Sequence record: MT682709.1
Source of the DNA: Escherichia phage vB_EcoM_SP1
Reading direction: 5' to 3' (one strand)
Length of the DNA stretch: 64,000 nucleotides
The notes beneath the pieces are model-generated. The model did no database searches and had not been told where the DNA came from. It saw only the letters and a program-made list of their open reading frames with translations. This document shows, piece after piece, positions 13,497 to 21,605 of this stretch (position 1 is the first letter of the stretch; every line of letters starts with the position of its first letter). Made by a program: the position numbers and the translations under genes.

Positions 13497-13830
13497 AATT
13501 TTGGTTTTATGTATAGGATTAATTTCATTTTCTGCGTTAGCAAATACATCATATACTGAAATTAGAGAGTATGTAAACCGTACTGCCGCGGATTATTGCG
13601 GGAAAAATAAAGCATGCCAAGCTGAATTTGCGCAGAAATTAATATATGCATATAAAGACGGAGAAAGAGATAAATCAAGCAGATACAAAAATGATACTTT
13701 ATTAAAACGATATGCTAAAAAGTGGAATACCTTAGAATGTTCAGTTGCGGAGGAGAAAGATAAAGCCGCTTGTCATTCAATGGTTGACCGTTTGGTAGAT
13801 TCTTATAATCGAGGATTGAGTACTAGATGA
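13489..13830 (+). CDS. secreted Cys-containing protein (113 aa)
   Basis: Signal peptide MTKILVLCIGLISFSALA; four Cys. Confidence 0.5.
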   Translation: MTKILVLCIGLISFSALANTSYTEIREYVNRTAADYCGKNKACQAEFAQKLIYAYKDGERDKSSRYKNDTLLKRYAKKWNTLECSVAEEKDKAACHSMVDRLVDSYNRGLSTR

Positions 13831-14306
13831 TTGTAAAATATATCAAGGGCGATATTGTCGCCCTATTTCTTCAAGGTAATATTATTGCGCATGGGTGCAA
13901 CTGCTTTCATACTATGGGTTCAGGTGTAGCAGGTCAATTAGCAAGGGCCTATCCTAAAATTTTAGAAATAGATAAAACCACTACTGAGTACGGTTCTCGT
14001 GATAAATTAGGTGATATGTCTATTGTTTTTAAACATAATCCTACAGGATTTGGTATATGCTATAACCTGTATACACAATACGAACCAGGTCCTAATCTTG
14101 ATTATGGTGCTTTAGTAAACTGCATGATAGAATTAAATCTACAGGCAGAAACCCTTTTGTTTAAACCAGTAATTTACATTCCACGCATAGGTTGTGGTAT
14201 TGCTGGCGGTGATTGGGATAAGGTTTCTAAATTAATCGACATGTTTACTCCTGATATTGATTTAATAGTGGTGGATTATGAAAGCACATTACCCGCATCC
14301 GTTTGA
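13827..14306 (+). CDS. macro-domain protein (ADP-ribose binding/processing), 159 aa
   Basis: GDIV...GNIIAHGCNCFHTMGSGVAGQL and IPRIGCGIAGGDW match the two macro-domain signature regions. Confidence 0.55.
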   Translation: MIVKYIKGDIVALFLQGNIIAHGCNCFHTMGSGVAGQLARAYPKILEIDKTTTEYGSRDKLGDMSIVFKHNPTGFGICYNLYTQYEPGPNLDYGALVNCMIELNLQAETLLFKPVIYIPRIGCGIAGGDWDKVSKLIDMFTPDIDLIVVDYESTLPASV

Positions 14307-14693: not shown

Positions 14694-14863
14694 ATAGTTC
14701 TGAGTTACAATATGAAGTGTTACGTGAACTTGATAATTTAATTGAACTCGCTGTTAATAAAGGTTTTGCCATTGGAATTGGTCAAAAAGATACTGATCAT
14801 TTAACTATGGAAATATTTAAGCAAAAACGAATTATTTTAAAACTTCTGGAAATTAATATATGA
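14690..14863 (+). CDS. hypothetical small protein (57 aa)
   Basis: ATG 14690 overlapping previous stop (ATGA), ends ATGA-coupled to the next gene; below the ORF-track size cutoff. Confidence 0.45.
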   Translation: MNSSELQYEVLRELDNLIELAVNKGFAIGIGQKDTDHLTMEIFKQKRIILKLLEINI

Positions 14864-15045
14864 GTCTGAGCAAAGAACAAAAAGATAAATTGTTTGAGCT
14901 TATCCATGAACTTCTAGATGAGCATACAGAAGCAAACACCTTTTATGATGAATACGGCCCGCTATCTCCCGAACAGCAGGAAGAATTTGCTGATCGGTTT
15001 GATAAGAAAGAAAATGAATTAATAGCTTATGTGAATACGCTTTAA
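14860..15045 (+). CDS. hypothetical acidic protein (61 aa)
   Basis: ATG 14860, translationally coupled. Confidence 0.5.
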   Translation: MSLSKEQKDKLFELIHELLDEHTEANTFYDEYGPLSPEQQEEFADRFDKKENELIAYVNTL

Positions 15046-16197: not shown

Positions 16198-16580
16198 AAT
16201 TCAGCGACTTTTCACAAAGTGGAAAACCTTCAAAGGCAGATGAATACTTAGGTTTATTAATGGCTGCACAAGCTTATTTTCATTCTGCGCATTTTGAAAC
16301 TAAAAGTTATGCTAGACACAAGGCATACGATTTTATTTTCTCTGAGTTGCCAGATTTGATTGATAAATTTGGTGAGCAGTATTTGGGGTATTCTGGTAGA
16401 AAATACACACCTTCAATTCCAGATGCTAGTAAACTTCCTACCGACACAATTAAAATGATTGATCGTATACTAGACCAATCTAACAGCATTTACAAAGAAA
16501 TGCCTCCAGCCATTCAAAGTACGATAGATGATATTACTGGAATGTTTTATCAAAGTAAATATCTTCTTTCCCTCGAATAA
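16194..16580 (+). CDS. hypothetical protein (128 aa)
   Basis: ATG overlapping rI stop (ATGA). Confidence 0.55.
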
Positions 16581-16584
16581 CATT

Positions 16585-16607
16585 AGTCTCCTTCGGGAGA
16601 CTTTTTT
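16585..16607 (+). terminator. rho-independent terminator (UUCG hairpin)
   Basis: AGTCTCC-TTCG-GGAGACT followed by TTTTT. Confidence 0.7.
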
Positions 16608-16617
16608 CATTTTACCG

Positions 16618-16647
16618 GTTTACTTTCTATTTGAGCTGTGATACTAT
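16618..16647 (+). promoter_or_regulatory. T4-type early promoter
   Basis: GTTTAC 16618-16623, TACTAT 16642-16647. Confidence 0.55.
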
Positions 16648-16675
16648 ACAACCATCGGATAAAGAGGAGAACATC

Positions 16676-16864
16676 ATGAAAATTGAAGCACTTAATCAAG
16701 AAGGAAATATATACGTCATCATTAATGGTGATTTTTTCGTCGACATGGATGAAGTTACCAGTGAAGAACTTGAAGAACTTCTTAAGAAACGTTATGATAT
16801 GTGTGATGAAGCTGCAACTCATATGGCGTGTGCAATATTCTCTCTTTCATATGTGGTGGAATAA
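16676..16864 (+). CDS. hypothetical acidic protein (62 aa)
   Basis: ATG 16676 after AAAGAGGAGAA RBS (track ORF begins upstream). Confidence 0.5.
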
Positions 16865-17046
16865 TGATTAGTATCAAACAAGCAGATAAAATTAAAGAAT
16901 TGGTAGCTTTAATTCGCAAAGCAGATGAGGAACGCATTAACTTTGCCTTATCAGGTATTGAAGAATTTGAAGCTAAAGTTGATAATGCTGTAGAAGCGTT
17001 AGATATGTTTCTTGATGAAATTATCGATCATAATACGAGAGTTTAA
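16864..17046 (+). CDS. hypothetical protein (60 aa)
   Basis: ATG 16864 overlapping previous stop. Confidence 0.45.
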   Translation: MISIKQADKIKELVALIRKADEERINFALSGIEEFEAKVDNAVEALDMFLDEIIDHNTRV

Positions 17047-17048
17047 TT

Positions 17049-17243
17049 ATGCTAACACGTGAACAGTTTGAAAAAATCATTAAATTAGCACGTGATATTG
17101 AAATAGATTCATACCAATTAGCAGTTGAGCATTGTGAAGGATATTCATACGACGGTATAGAAGCAGCTAAAAAGGATTTGGATAAATCCAAAGCTAAGTT
17201 AGTTCAATATCTTGAAATGATTAGGTGGAATAATGAAAACTGA
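17049..17243 (+). CDS. hypothetical protein (64 aa)
   Basis: ORF adjacent to previous stop. Confidence 0.5.
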   Translation: MLTREQFEKIIKLARDIEIDSYQLAVEHCEGYSYDGIEAAKKDLDKSKAKLVQYLEMIRWNNEN

Positions 17244-17406
17244 AAAGCAGATATTTTTAATGAAGCTAATTGAAGAATATGCTAATGCAGTTTCTGACTA
17301 TGAGTGTTCTTCTCGGGAAAGAGGTATAGCTTTCGCCAAAGAAGAAATGAAAATCATGGTTGATGCTCACACAAAGCTTCAGAATTTTATTGAAAACGTC
17401 ATTTAA
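17233..17406 (+). CDS. hypothetical small protein (57 aa)
   Basis: ATG 17233 overlapping previous gene end; below ORF-track cutoff. Confidence 0.4.
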   Translation: MKTEKQIFLMKLIEEYANAVSDYECSSRERGIAFAKEEMKIMVDAHTKLQNFIENVI

Positions 17407-17408
17407 TG

Positions 17409-17450
17409 GTTTACAAGTTGGCAAGGTTATGGTATAGTAATCTTGCCAAC
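17409..17450 (+). promoter_or_regulatory. early promoter embedded in an inverted repeat (PeSL-like)
   Basis: GTTTAC 17409-17414; arms GTTGGCAAG (17417-17425) and CTTGCCAAC (17442-17450) flank a 16-nt spacer containing TATAGT. Confidence 0.55.
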
Positions 17451-17570
17451 TGTCAAGGAGAAGAGAATGAAAGTTTTGTTTGTTGTGTATGTGATGATTC
17501 AATATAATTACCCAATGTTTACTTATAATCTGGTGAATAACATTATTGATATTATTCAAAGGAGTATGTA

Positions 17571-18116
17571 ATGACGGTAGCGGCGAAACGATTAGTATTA
17601 GAAGTTAGTTCACTTTTTGGTGAATTGGCTATAGAAAAAGTAAATAATGTGTATCGTTTGACACAAGAAGACGATATGCTGTATTTTACGCCTAGTGAAA
17701 TCATTCATTTAACCAAAATTGAAAATCCTTATACTGATAAAATTGTAAGCATTAATGATGAGCATAAAATTCATTTTTATTCTTCATGCCCAGGATTTAA
17801 TATTGAAAGCGAGTCAATATGCTTATCAATTAATAATTGGGATAATTTTATAACTAACATTAAATATTTTTATGATTCTACTAAAAGAAAACATAATTTA
17901 AAATGGTTTAAAAAATGTAATGCTATTATTACTAACTCCTGTAATCAGAATGATGAAACTATTTTAAATGTTTCAAAATGCTATGAAGAGGGAGATGTAG
18001 TATCTATTCGTCAAATTGACGATTTTCGATCACATATCATTACATTAAACAAAGACGAAGCTATTGCGCTAAAGACTTATCTTGATTCTGTTATTCCAAC
18101 TATGATTTCAAAGTGA
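17571..18116 (+). CDS. hypothetical protein (181 aa), paralogue of 18123..18644
   Basis: Shares PGFNIESESICLSI and VSIRQ...EAIALKTYLDSVIPTM with the next gene. Confidence 0.6.
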   Translation: MTVAAKRLVLEVSSLFGELAIEKVNNVYRLTQEDDMLYFTPSEIIHLTKIENPYTDKIVSINDEHKIHFYSSCPGFNIESESICLSINNWDNFITNIKYFYDSTKRKHNLKWFKKCNAIITNSCNQNDETILNVSKCYEEGDVVSIRQIDDFRSHIITLNKDEAIALKTYLDSVIPTMISK

Positions 18117-18122
18117 GGAAAT

Positions 18123-18644
18123 ATGTTTATTTCAAGTGGAAGTGGTTTAATTCGTGTTGAATTTAAAAATGACATCTTCCTTATTCAAGGAGATGATATT
18201 ATTAAAATGAGTTATGACGAAATCAAGAAAATTTGTCATGCTCTTGAAATCCGTGGAAAAGTAAATGCTACTATCGATATAGGTGATTTATGGGTGACAC
18301 TTTATGAAGTATCCGAAGGATTTAACATTGAAGATGAAAACAACATCTTAGCTATTGATAAAAGAAGTGATTTGTTTGATGTGTTAAAAGTTTATGAACA
18401 GTCAAACGGTGGAAGAAAAGCTGCATTGATTTATCAAAAACCACATTCATGTGGAACTGCTTCAATCGTTTCAAATATTGAAGATGAAACTGATACTTAT
18501 ATGTGTGTTTTAAAAGCTGGTGGTGACCGTCATCCGGATTTTATTTCTATTCGTCAAAACAATGGAGAAATTTCATTATCAAAATCAGAAGCTGAAGCTA
18601 TGATTAAGTATTTAACAACTGTTACACCTTCAATGAAAGGATAA
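18123..18644 (+). CDS. hypothetical protein (173 aa), paralogue of 17571..18116
   Basis: EGFNIEDENNILAI and ISIRQ...EAEAMIKYLTTVTPSM. Confidence 0.6.
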   Translation: MFISSGSGLIRVEFKNDIFLIQGDDIIKMSYDEIKKICHALEIRGKVNATIDIGDLWVTLYEVSEGFNIEDENNILAIDKRSDLFDVLKVYEQSNGGRKAALIYQKPHSCGTASIVSNIEDETDTYMCVLKAGGDRHPDFISIRQNNGEISLSKSEAEAMIKYLTTVTPSMKG

Positions 18645-18646
18645 TT

Positions 18647-19108
18647 ATGATTATTAATGAAAGCTCTTGGCATTATAAATTATTCAAAATGTTTAACGAC
18701 GAATGGAAACGACCTAAGACACTGTGTGCATACTTTTGGTCTATTGTTATTCCTACATTTTTCGTTTCTTTTTTCGGATGTACTATACTCGCAGGTCTAA
18801 CTATCATCTGTGCAGAAATCATGCAGAAATGGCTTATTTTTGGTAGTTTATGGACTCTTATTCCATCAGCATTTATACTTGCCATTTTGCTTGTTTTACT
18901 TATTATTGGTTCATTTGTTATTCCTGCACAACTGCGTGAAAAATATAAAGATTATAAATGGAAAAAGGATTATGCTTTACATGTAGAAAATATTGATAGG
19001 GCGTATAAAGGTTTACCTCCTATTCAACCAAAGAAATCTATTATCGTCGAATTTTTAAAAGCGCGTAAAGCTAAAGTATGTCCTGTTATTGAATATAAGG
19101 CTAAATGA
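18647..19108 (+). CDS. membrane protein (153 aa; about three TM segments)
   Basis: Hydrophobic stretches; stop overlaps the next start (ATGATGA). Confidence 0.55.
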   Translation: MIINESSWHYKLFKMFNDEWKRPKTLCAYFWSIVIPTFFVSFFGCTILAGLTIICAEIMQKWLIFGSLWTLIPSAFILAILLVLLIIGSFVIPAQLREKYKDYKWKKDYALHVENIDRAYKGLPPIQPKKSIIVEFLKARKAKVCPVIEYKAK

Positions 19109-20118
19109 TGAAAACAATAATGAAAAGCTATTTTGGTAGTCATCTTTATGGAACTTCTACTCCAGAATCTGATGTAGATTTTAAAGAAATCTTTGTTCCT
19201 CCTGCTCGTGATATTCTTATCGGAAATGTTAAAGAGCATATGAGTAAAAACACTAACAACACATCATCTAAAAACACCAAAGATGATATTGACCATGAAC
19301 TATACAGTCTTAAATATTTCTTTAAATTAGCAGCAGATGGTGAAACTGTAGCATTGGATATGCTCCACACTCCACCTGAACTGGTAGTTAAATCTGATTT
19401 GCCTGATGTATGGAAGTTTATTCAAGACAATCGTTCACGGTTTTATACAACTAACATGAAATCCTATTTAGGATATGTTCGCAAGCAAGCTTCTAAATAT
19501 GGTGTTAAGGGTTCTCGTTTGGCCGCATTGCGTGATGTATTGAAAGCAGTTAATCAAATCCCTGATCAGTGGGTTGATTACCAAGAAGACGGTTCCATTA
19601 AGCAGCGTCGAACTAAAGTAGAAGATATTAAGCATCGTCTTCCAGAAAACGAGTTCTGTGAATGGGTATTCCATAATCATGAGAAAACAGGCCCGCAAAC
19701 GTTCTATACTGTGTTGGGTCGTAAATATCAGACAACACTTTCTCTTATTGAGCTTAAGCAGTCTTTGAATAAACTTGATGCTGAATACGGCGAACGTGCT
19801 CGTAAGGCTGAAGCGAATGAGGGTATTGACTGGAAAGCACTGAGCCATGCTTGTCGTGGTGGACTCCAACTATTGGAAATTTACAAAACTGGTGACTTGG
19901 TTTATCCACTCCAAGATGCTCCATTTATTCTCGATGTGAAGTTGGGTAAACATCCATTTAAAACGATCCAAGAGTTTTTGGAAGATGTGGTCGATCAAGT
20001 AGAAGCAGCATCCATTGAAGCTTCTAAGAACGGTATGCAGCAAAAAGTAGACATGGGTTTCTGGGATGACTTCCTTGAGAGGGTTTATCTTGAAAACCAC
20101 CGAAGTTATTATAAATAA
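19105..20118 (+). CDS. predicted nucleotidyltransferase (Pol-beta superfamily fold), 337 aa
   Basis: N-terminal motif GSHLYGTSTPESDVDF (GS-x9-SDxD) with a further acidic residue in DIDHE; helical C-terminal domain. Confidence 0.5.
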   Translation: MMKTIMKSYFGSHLYGTSTPESDVDFKEIFVPPARDILIGNVKEHMSKNTNNTSSKNTKDDIDHELYSLKYFFKLAADGETVALDMLHTPPELVVKSDLPDVWKFIQDNRSRFYTTNMKSYLGYVRKQASKYGVKGSRLAALRDVLKAVNQIPDQWVDYQEDGSIKQRRTKVEDIKHRLPENEFCEWVFHNHEKTGPQTFYTVLGRKYQTTLSLIELKQSLNKLDAEYGERARKAEANEGIDWKALSHACRGGLQLLEIYKTGDLVYPLQDAPFILDVKLGKHPFKTIQEFLEDVVDQVEAASIEASKNGMQQKVDMGFWDDFLERVYLENHRSYYK

Positions 20119-20121
20119 AAA

Positions 20122-20145
20122 GGGAGCCTTCGGGCTCCCTTTTTA
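20122..20145 (+). terminator. rho-independent terminator (UUCG hairpin)
   Basis: GGGAGCC-TTCG-GGCTCCC followed by TTTTT. Confidence 0.7.
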
Positions 20146-20149
20146 TTTC

Positions 20150-20235
20150 AAAATTTTTTCACAAAACGGTTTACAAGCATAAAGCTTTATGGTACTATAC
20201 AACTATCAACTGATACGGATTTGGAGAATAAAATG
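20150..20235 (+). repeat. early promoter-leader cassette, copy C
   Basis: AAATTTTTTCACAAAACGGTTTACA...GGTACTATACAACTATCAACTGATACGGATTTGGAGAATAAAATG; GTTTAC 20169-20174, TACTAT 20193-20198. Confidence 0.6.
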
Positions 20236-21201
20236 AAAACTGTAACTATCAATAAGGGTATCTACTTCGGTAAAGAAATCTCTGGAACTTTTGAGCTCTT
20301 AGGCGAATGGTTCCCAGATAATGCTCCGGTAGATGCACAAGGAGATGGTAAAGTTTTTGTTGAAATTGACGGTAAACGTCGCGGTGTTTGGGTTTACAAA
20401 TCAGATATTTCATATGATGGTGTAAAAGTTGAAGAAGTTAAAGAATCATATGAAGATATGAAAATCCGCATTAATAAAAGATTTAATGTTATGGGAATGA
20501 TGACGAATGGTATTATTAATGGAAATATTCGTTCATTAATTATCTCTGGCGCAGCAGGTATTGGTAAAACGTATTCTTTAGATAAAGCTTTGAATAAAGC
20601 AAATGATATTGGATACATTGAATATAAAAGCATTAATGGTAAAATCTCTGGTATTGGTCTTTATGAGCAGCTTTGGAATAATCGTGAAGAGAATTCTGTC
20701 CTTTTGATTGATGATGTGGATGTTTTCTCTGATATGGACATTCTTAATCTTCTAAAAGCTGCTCTGGACACTGGAGAGACCCGTAAAGTCTGCTGGAGCA
20801 CTGCATCTTCTTACTTAGAAGAAAAAGGCATTGACCGTGAGTTTGAATTTAAAGGAACGATTGTTTTTATCACAAACGTTGACATTGACCGCGAATTAGA
20901 CCGTGGTACTAAACTTGCCCCACACTTACAAGCATTGGTGTCCCGCTCAGTTTATTTGGATTTGGGTGTTCACACTAATGAAGAAATTATGGTCAGGGTT
21001 GAAGATGTTATTCTTTCAACTGACATGATGCAAAAGCGCGGTCTTTCTGATGAAGAAACTTATAAAGCATTATCATGGATGAAAGTTAATGTTAATCGTT
21101 TACGCAATGTTTCACTGCGTACTGCTCTTTATCTTGCTGACTTTATTATGACCGACAAAAACGGTTGGGAAGAAATTGCTGAGGTTACTCTTCTGAAATA
21201 A
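20233..21201 (+). CDS. AAA+ family ATPase (Walker A GAAGIGKT, Walker B LLIDDVD), 322 aa
   Basis: ATG 20233 after GGAGAATAAA (track begins at TTG 20221); Walker motifs. Confidence 0.6.
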   Translation: MKTVTINKGIYFGKEISGTFELLGEWFPDNAPVDAQGDGKVFVEIDGKRRGVWVYKSDISYDGVKVEEVKESYEDMKIRINKRFNVMGMMTNGIINGNIRSLIISGAAGIGKTYSLDKALNKANDIGYIEYKSINGKISGIGLYEQLWNNREENSVLLIDDVDVFSDMDILNLLKAALDTGETRKVCWSTASSYLEEKGIDREFEFKGTIVFITNVDIDRELDRGTKLAPHLQALVSRSVYLDLGVHTNEEIMVRVEDVILSTDMMQKRGLSDEETYKALSWMKVNVNRLRNVSLRTALYLADFIMTDKNGWEEIAEVTLLK

Positions 21202-21302
21202 TTCATAAGAGGACTTCTATGACAAAAAGGCAGTTCAGAAATAGATTATATGGACTGCCATCAAAAAGATGACTAGAATTAAACTGGTAAATGGAGGTAG
21301 TG

Positions 21303-21605
21303 ATGTTATACTCAAAGGCTCGTGAAATTTACGAAACTAAAATTAAAGAAGCAGTATTTCAATTCGCAACGACAATGCGATGGACAAATGACTGGGAGTA
21401 TTCAAAAAATCATAAGAAGCCCATGGTGACAAGAAAGGCTCATATGTTAGTGTTAATAGACCGTGAGCAGATTAAAGCCCGAGAAGCTCTCCAGAATCAT
21501 AAAAAGGCTGCCTTTGAATGGTTTATGGATAACACTGCTCCTGAGACTAAGAAAGCGGTAAGCGCATGGTTCAGTGGAAAAAATTGTGAAAGAAGTTTCT
21601 TTTAG
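21303..21605 (+). CDS. hypothetical protein (about 100 aa)
   Basis: Start uncertain: ATG 21303 after GGAGGT, or ATG 21291. Confidence 0.45.
   Translation: MLYSKAREIYETKIKEAVFQFATTMRWTNDWEYSKNHKKPMVTRKAHMLVLIDREQIKAREALQNHKKAAFEWFMDNTAPETKKAVSAWFSGKNCERSFF

Follow-up and report, generated by a model that had tools for sequence, protein, structure and literature searches.

Two old paralogues of the T4 MobD.1 (Y05I) family, with a predicted PUR/Whirly-like fold, in the early region of a T-even phage

The gene pair and its surroundings

The DNA considered here, referred to below as the window, is a stretch of 64,000 nucleotides from Escherichia phage vB_EcoM_SP1 (MT682709.1), a T4-like (Tequatrovirus) genome, and the genes of concern are in its early region, where the genes follow one another as in the early region of T4: tk, rI.1, rI, rI.-1, mobD.5 to mobD.2, two ORFs termed A and B, a membrane protein gene, nrdC.11 and nrdC.10. 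Hundreds of T-even phages of Escherichia, Shigella and Yersinia share the 4.3 kb around A and B at 96–97% identity. Both ORFs are on the plus strand and start with ATG, A at 17571..18116 (181 aa) and B at 18123..18644 (173 aa), with a spacing of 6 nt and a Shine-Dalgarno-like sequence before each. They are followed, on the same strand, by the gene for a small membrane protein of 153 aa (18647..19108; phrog_944, ‘membrane protein’), by that for NrdC.11 (19105..20118), a Pol-beta nucleotidyltransferase of the RlaP family (Pfam RlaP, 2.2e-11) with 97% amino acid identity to its T4 counterpart, and by that for NrdC.10 (20221..21201), an AAA-type ATPase with weak AAA/nSTAND Pfam matches and a match to phrog_1250. 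An earlier note on this DNA had placed the pair directly upstream of a membrane protein, a nucleotidyltransferase and an ATPase, and the gene order read in the window bears this out.

How much of this order is likely to be transcribed together? Just upstream of mobD.2 and A, on the plus strand at 17410..17438, is an early-type promoter-like site, GTTTACA followed by a 17 nt spacer and TG-n-TATAGT, which with 10/12 matches and an extended −10 TG is the top-scoring sigma-70-like site in 16500–21400. Judged by its sequence and position, it probably starts a unit comprising mobD.2, A, B, the membrane protein gene and nrdC.11, the last of which is the presumed end of that early unit and is context, not part of the A/B pair. 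Between nrdC.11 and nrdC.10 there is an intrinsic-terminator-like hairpin (20113..20148, plus strand) with a 16 bp stem, a GC-rich core and a T run, and another early-type promoter-like site (20170–20198) lies between the hairpin and nrdC.10. Because of this strong terminator and the new promoter-like site at 20170, nrdC.10 is probably in a separate transcription unit. Where the window has the hairpin and promoter-like site, BW-1, T2 and metagenomic contigs have extra ORFs in the nrdC.11–nrdC.10 gap, one of them Mod-type ADP-ribosyltransferase-like (PF26816).

A and B were regarded in the earlier note as a duplicated, diverged pair. BLASTP aligns them over 176 columns, nearly their full length, at 27% identity (44.3 bits, E 9e-11), and their Smith-Waterman score of 113 is far above those of 2000 residue shuffles (mean 31.2, sd 5.1, maximum 59; z = 16). 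The ORF coordinates are exactly as then given and the shared blocks then quoted are found in both, an internal one that is PGFNIESE in A and EGFNIEDE in B, and a C-terminal one that is VSIRQ...DEAIALKTYLDSVIPTM in A and ISIRQ...SEAEAMIKYLTTVTPSM in B. Each ORF matches two Pfam domains in the same order, T4_y05I_N (PF24449; A 139.6 bits, B 113.4 bits, gathering cut-off 24.9) and then T4_y05I_C (PF24448; A 76.8 bits, B 82.1 bits, gathering cut-off 27), so both are members of the Pfam T4_y05I family and have the same two-domain architecture; both also match phrog_1502. With a z of 16 and shared Pfam domains, chance similarity is ruled out, and it is secure that the two are diverged paralogues. 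Whether the duplication was recent and local is a separate matter, to which the branching of the family is pertinent.

The MobD.1/Y05I family and the age of the second copy

A has 92% amino acid identity to T4 mobD.1 (Y05I_BPT4, NP_049711), is of the same length and has the same position as in T4, between mobD.2 and nrdC.11 in the order tk, rI, mobD.x, A, nrdC.11; on sequence and position it is the orthologue of T4 MobD.1. In contrast, B is only 25–30% identical to T4 MobD.1, and, while it agrees with MobD.1 in its two Pfam domains and their order, it is on a separate old branch. The family is already catalogued (Pfam PF24449/PF24448) and its function is uncharacterised: a literature search found no study of the MobD.1/Y05I family, with mobD.1 being named only in a review table. 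In T4, MobD.1 RNA and protein are both of the early class by RNA-seq and mass spectrometry (supplement of PMC9697503), and as the T4 nrdC.11–mobD.3 block can be deleted (PMC9825161), A and B are considered non-essential. Many RefSeq records (e.g., locus L002, 3599–4132) label MobD.1, MobD.4 and neighbours as molybdopterin-guanine dinucleotide protein MobD. The label ‘molybdopterin-guanine dinucleotide biosynthesis protein MobD’ was rejected, there being no MobA/MobB-type Pfam or NCBIfam match, and it looks like propagated gene-name confusion with ‘mob’ for mobile endonuclease. A known defence-system component was also considered and set aside, as PADLOC HMMs gave no match for A, B, the membrane protein, NrdC.11 or NrdC.10.

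The T4 genome itself is without B and without the membrane gene, and has instead, between mobD.1 and nrdC.11, the gene for an HNH homing endonuclease, mobD. That gene (locus L001, NC_000866, 12430–13209) fills exactly the slot of B plus the membrane gene (window 18123–19108), and its insertion apparently replaced those two genes. Which of the two arrangements is the ordinary one? A-type genes are in 726 phage records and B, at an identity of at least 80%, is in 433. The A–B junction is contiguous in 436 records and that of B with the membrane gene in 423, against only 47 with T4-type mobD at an identity of at least 95%, and on these counts A–B–membrane is the usual order in Tequatrovirus, from which T4 departs.

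More widely, a word-indexed search gave 49 clusters for the family and an exhaustive HMM search of 1.84 billion representative proteins gave 29 members, all from T4-like phages; the family is restricted to those of enterobacteria. Full-length homologues are present in Mosigvirus (~48% identity to A) and Dhakavirus (~33%), and other T4-like genera have proteins of 70–87 aa that consist of the C-domain only. A 1572-aa repeat protein (P0064) was discarded as a wider family member since its low-complexity match looks spurious. A viral fold library yielded family members and Bacillus-phage proteins only, none of known function, and a profile search of all PDB sequences gave nothing at E ≤ 1, there being no family member with a solved structure.

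In neighbour-joining trees of each domain, B and a 55%-identical variant of it (P0033) are outside the clade that contains A, a second A allele and the single-copy Mosigvirus and Dhakavirus genes. As B thus branches outside all the A-type orthologues in both trees, a recent tandem duplication is ruled out and, on this branching, B is an old paralogue that was retained, or acquired, only in Tequatrovirus. The earlier idea of a duplicated pair therefore survives in that the two are true paralogues, but not in the sense of a recent local duplication. The C-domain of B groups among the stand-alone C-domain proteins.

Could B nevertheless be just a redundant passenger, neither doing anything that A does not do nor acting jointly with it? 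It would fit with this that T4 and its close relatives are entirely without B, that some phages have a single A/B fusion in place of the two genes and that both A and B have been lost in T2. However, B is intact and 90–99% conserved in about 430 sequenced phages, its lineage is old, with an N-domain 25% identical to that of A, and both genes are under purifying selection, dN/dS between phages being 0.09–0.22 for B and 0.18–0.28 for A (0.03 for nrdC.11). Such long persistence is not what one would expect of a redundant copy, and pure redundancy is very improbable.

The most conserved segment in every comparison is the C-terminal helix and tail, K.EA.AL..YL..V.P.M. It is 45% identical between A and B, against 25% for the N-domain, and a second A allele, present in some Tequatroviruses such as PE37 and about 49% identical to A overall, has 91% identity in that helix against 41% in its N-domain, so that A is mosaic at the level of domains. 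In PE37 (locus L011, 2998–3540) the B adjacent to this allele is 95% identical to that of the window. That the domains are modular is shown by a natural chimera of 179 aa (P0008), one gene that carries the N-domain from A and the C-domain from B and has the membrane gene and nrdC.11 directly after it (metagenomic Tequatrovirus contigs L008–L010; 3001–3540 of L008), a sign that the two paralogues have recombined and that one gene length has been lost. The counterpart of window 17571–19108 in T2 (locus L003, PV648364.1, 3440–4981) has two frameshifts in A, two in B and one in the membrane gene, and the three appear to have decayed together, while the adjoining nrdC.11 is intact (97.9% amino acid identity).

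Co-conservation with a small membrane protein

The earlier note had also raised co-conservation of the pair with everything from 18647 to 21201, and this is so for only part of that stretch. The Tequatrovirus loci examined were those of the window, BW-1, PE37, T2 and three metagenomic contigs, and the others, besides T4, were Mosigvirus HX01, Dhakavirus JS98 and NC-G, Gelderlandvirus SEA1 and a Proteus phage, Winklervirus CHI14, Karamvirus Pet-CM3-4 and a Klebsiella T4-like phage; the synteny rests on the record counts given above and on 19 loci overall. In 13 of 14 enterobacterial T4-like loci a y05I_C gene is immediately upstream of a membrane-protein homologue, the exception being T4. With NrdC.11 the association is looser, as in several genera (Klebsiella, Serratia, Cronobacter and Proteus phages) one to three unrelated genes lie between it and the y05I gene, and NrdC.10 is apparently in its own unit. 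Hence it is only between the pair and the membrane protein that co-conservation is tight. Identity across genera is 84–93% for NrdC.11, 34–49% for A and 30–48% for the membrane protein.

Salmonella phage SEA1 (locus L006, 4001–4960 and 6263–6987) has two tandem stand-alone C-domain genes and a membrane gene, and then, 1.3 kb downstream, a second pair of C-domain and membrane genes, so the two-gene cassette has been duplicated as a unit. Is the coupling obligatory? It is not, since in Aeromonas phages 65, AP1 and avDM9, and also in a lambdoid-like contig from Cellvibrionaceae (L018), unrelated genes and no y05I gene come before the membrane gene, and T4 keeps MobD.1 without the membrane protein. 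Conserved gene order is in any case common in T4-like phages.

The membrane protein family comprises 383 clusters and has no Pfam model. The C-terminal tail of the protein, residues 96–153, is basic (+9), and the family alignment (A4) has an invariant N-terminal SWH...LC.Y motif (S7 W8 H9, L26 C27, Y29) together with a conserved C-terminal KARK.K.CP.IE(F/Y). The conserved histidine and two cysteines are a hint, from these motifs, of a metal or redox site that may join the two cytoplasmic ends. For the homologue in Serratia phage CHI14 (locus L012, 2501–2986) there is a weak sub-threshold match to Pfam SieB (superinfection exclusion protein B) with an E of 0.002, which may be compositional.

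Predicted fold, acidity and possible role

For A and B singly, AlphaFold2 with family alignments gave models of three successive units, each of four or five strands and then a helix, and a PUR/Whirly-like fold is predicted for both, which is what structure prediction of the pair, proposed in the earlier note, has contributed. The model of B is good in both domains (mean pLDDT 86.6); in that of A the N-domain has a pLDDT of about 90 and the C-domain is of low confidence (43–62). The pTM is 0.56–0.59 for both, so the relative arrangement of the domains is uncertain. In A, residues ~7–104 are predicted to be a PUR/Whirly-like domain, bbbba twice, and ~109–178 to be a C-terminal bbbb(b)a half-domain. 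The predicted topology of the former, bbbba-linker-bbbba as one domain, is that of a PC4-like domain of type I, whose two repeats would be folded together as are repeats I and II of Pur-alpha and the repeats of Whirly and MRP1/2. Structural matches (scores in brackets) are to MRP1/MRP2 (7–8), plant Whirly proteins (6–8), SsgA (7–8) and cyanobacterial Whirly-like proteins. For the C-domain of B, a second tier of matches, over 55–66 residues, is to KhtT-N (6.8), the PC4-like BPSL1147 (6.0), MoSub1 (5.5), YdbC (5.3), Borrelia Pur-alpha (5.3), Pur-alpha repeat III (4.7) and COMM domains, and these are half-domains that fold only as dimers. By hhalign, repeat 1 and the C-domain are related (probability 92%, E 7e-7), but repeat 2 gave no significant match to either repeat 1 or the C-domain, and a Pfam scan at E ≤ 1 gave no PurA match for A or B.

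PC4-like domains have been classed as type I and type II, with Pur-alpha as the only known protein that has both (PMC7549692, a 2020 review). From the models, the layout of the MobD.1 family appears likewise to be Pur-alpha-like, type I plus type II: in Pur-alpha (PURA; PDB 3k44, 5fgo, 8chw) repeats I and II fold intramolecularly and repeat III dimerises, and in A and B three bbbb(b)a units are predicted. The basic RNA- or ssDNA-binding proteins MRP1/MRP2 of Trypanosoma and Whirly of plants (PDB 2gia, 1l3a, 3n1h) tetramerise through their helices and, unlike A and B, are without an extra C-terminal half-domain. That half-domain is also lacking from actinomycete SsgA-like proteins (PDB 3cm1) and the DUF4176 type VII secretion chaperones (PDB 9dcr, 9dct), which are involved in cell division and toxin chaperoning and have no sequence relationship to A and B. 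The single-repeat proteins PC4, YdbC and bacterial Pur-alpha (PDB 5a4n, 4bhm, 2ltd, 3n8b) are basic ssDNA or RNA binders, whereas the phage C-domains are mostly acidic (pI 4.3–5.3) and have a family-specific YL..V.P.M motif. The fold assignment with its Pur-alpha-like layout, the status of B as an old paralogue and the conserved C-domain/membrane-protein cassette are new here.

Most characterised members of the PUR/Whirly/PC4 fold bind ssDNA or RNA, so are A and B likely to do so? The family is acidic throughout, with pI 4.2–5.5 and net charge −5 to −22. In the N-domain alignment there are no columns with at least 80% K/R and six with at least 80% D/E, the conserved polar residues being E, D, Q, N and Y. 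To judge from alignment columns and pI, the conserved basic/aromatic beta-sheet surface used for single-stranded nucleic acid appears to be absent. This acidity and the lack of conserved basic residues argue against classical nucleic-acid binding, and among proteins of this fold SsgA and the DUF4176 chaperones are not nucleic-acid binders.

The Pfam description of PF24449/PF24448, ‘y05I-like putative transcription factor’, probably reflects the nucleic-acid binding of other members of the fold. Taken at its word, it would make A and B sequence-specific transcription factors for phage or host promoters, and, besides the family names, Whirly PBF-2, Pur-alpha and PC4 do act as transcription factors or cofactors and the T4 orthologue is expressed early. 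But the label appears to be based on fold resemblance only, the acidity and want of conserved basic residues count against it as much as against any nucleic-acid binding, no HTH or other DNA-binding motif was found in A or B by Pfam and NCBIfam scans, and T4 can do without the gene and T2 has it in broken form, no transcription defect having been reported. Such a role is thus very doubtful, and it and pure redundancy are both less likely than the main rival reading, in which A and B are binders of ssRNA (or ssDNA) that partner NrdC.11.

In that rival, the two would form a hetero-oligomer like the MRP1/MRP2 heterotetramer and give damaged or cleaved RNA, e.g., tRNA, to NrdC.11 for RNA repair or counter-defence. 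The top structural neighbours, Pur-alpha, MRP1/2, Whirly and PC4, are nucleic-acid binders, MRP1 and MRP2 are themselves paralogues that work as a heterotetramer, and a phage Whirly-fold protein, ChmC, binds RNA (PMC11077065). T4 NrdC.11 has been placed in the RlaP family (bioRxiv 10.64898/2025.12.29.696909), members of which add 1–2 NMP to RNA 3′-OH ends, and its gene is in the same presumed early unit, from the promoter-like site at 17410 to the terminator at 20113. Set against this are not only the acidity, the N-domain without a conserved basic residue and the fold members that do not bind nucleic acid, but also the behaviour of NrdC.11, whose sequence changes at a much lower rate than that of A, whose gene does not adjoin the y05I gene in Klebsiella, Serratia, Cronobacter and Proteus phages, unrelated genes being in between, and which is intact in T2 where A and B are broken. 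All told, an RNA-binding partnership with NrdC.11 is possible but unlikely.

The reading we favour, tentatively and with the chance of its being right put at a little less than even, is that A and B are early accessory, dimeric, acidic proteins that serve as a protein-binding adaptor or regulator together with the membrane protein, rather than as classical single-strand nucleic-acid binders. It is preferred as the family is acidic, has no conserved basic residues and is kept beside the small membrane protein, whose tail is strongly basic. By analogy with PC4, bacterial Pur-alpha and Pur-alpha repeat III, the C-terminal single bbbb(b)a repeat (type II) would need to pair with another copy for its fold to be complete, and that the half-domain also exists alone, in the proteins of 70–87 aa, points to its need of a partner. 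Fold analogy and conservation suggest that this repeat, and above all its helix K.EA.AL..YL..V.P.M, is the dimerisation module. Homodimers would be expected, and, the C-terminal helix being conserved between the paralogues so that A and B could pair, probably A/B heterodimers too. In such a dimer the two divergent N-terminal domains would be platforms for ligand binding, and the acidic dimer may work with the membrane protein, through its basic cytoplasmic tail, in host takeover or in inter-phage or defence conflict.

A bolder version, and a decidedly unlikely one, is that the MobD.1 family is a second, viral, Pur-alpha design that has become an acidic module not for nucleic acid, or else a nucleic-acid mimic, with an A/B heterodimer docking on the basic tail of the membrane protein. 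The three genes would then be a membrane-anchored early cassette for host or inter-phage conflict, e.g., superinfection exclusion or evasion of a membrane-associated defence.

MobD.1 has been one of the many T4 early genes without a function since the genome was sequenced, though it is early as both RNA and protein. It now gains a predicted, and testable, PUR/Whirly-like fold with a Pur-alpha-like three-repeat layout, a likely quaternary logic, in that there is a half-domain that must pair and a paralogue with a compatible helix, and a likely partner in the adjoining membrane protein. If the adaptor reading is correct, it would add a defined module to the T-even accessory genes and a non-canonical, acidic use of the PC4-like fold. 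Practical value is modest, as the genes can be dispensed with in the laboratory and the family does not extend beyond the T4-like phages of enterobacteria, and the observation is itself an ordinary one, of two proteins from a known family of uncharacterised function in a hyperplastic T-even region.

Other genes close by in the window are of related interest. Directly upstream of A and B, at 16861–17406 and in the positions of T4 mobD.4, mobD.3 and mobD.2a, are three tandem small paralogues of 57–64 aa that match Pfam DUF7438, with a fourth copy just before tk (14860–15045), so the DUF7438 set is another local paralogue array. Also upstream of tk, in the position of T4 tk.4 (13827–14306), is a macro-domain protein (Pfam Macro, 5.8e-08).
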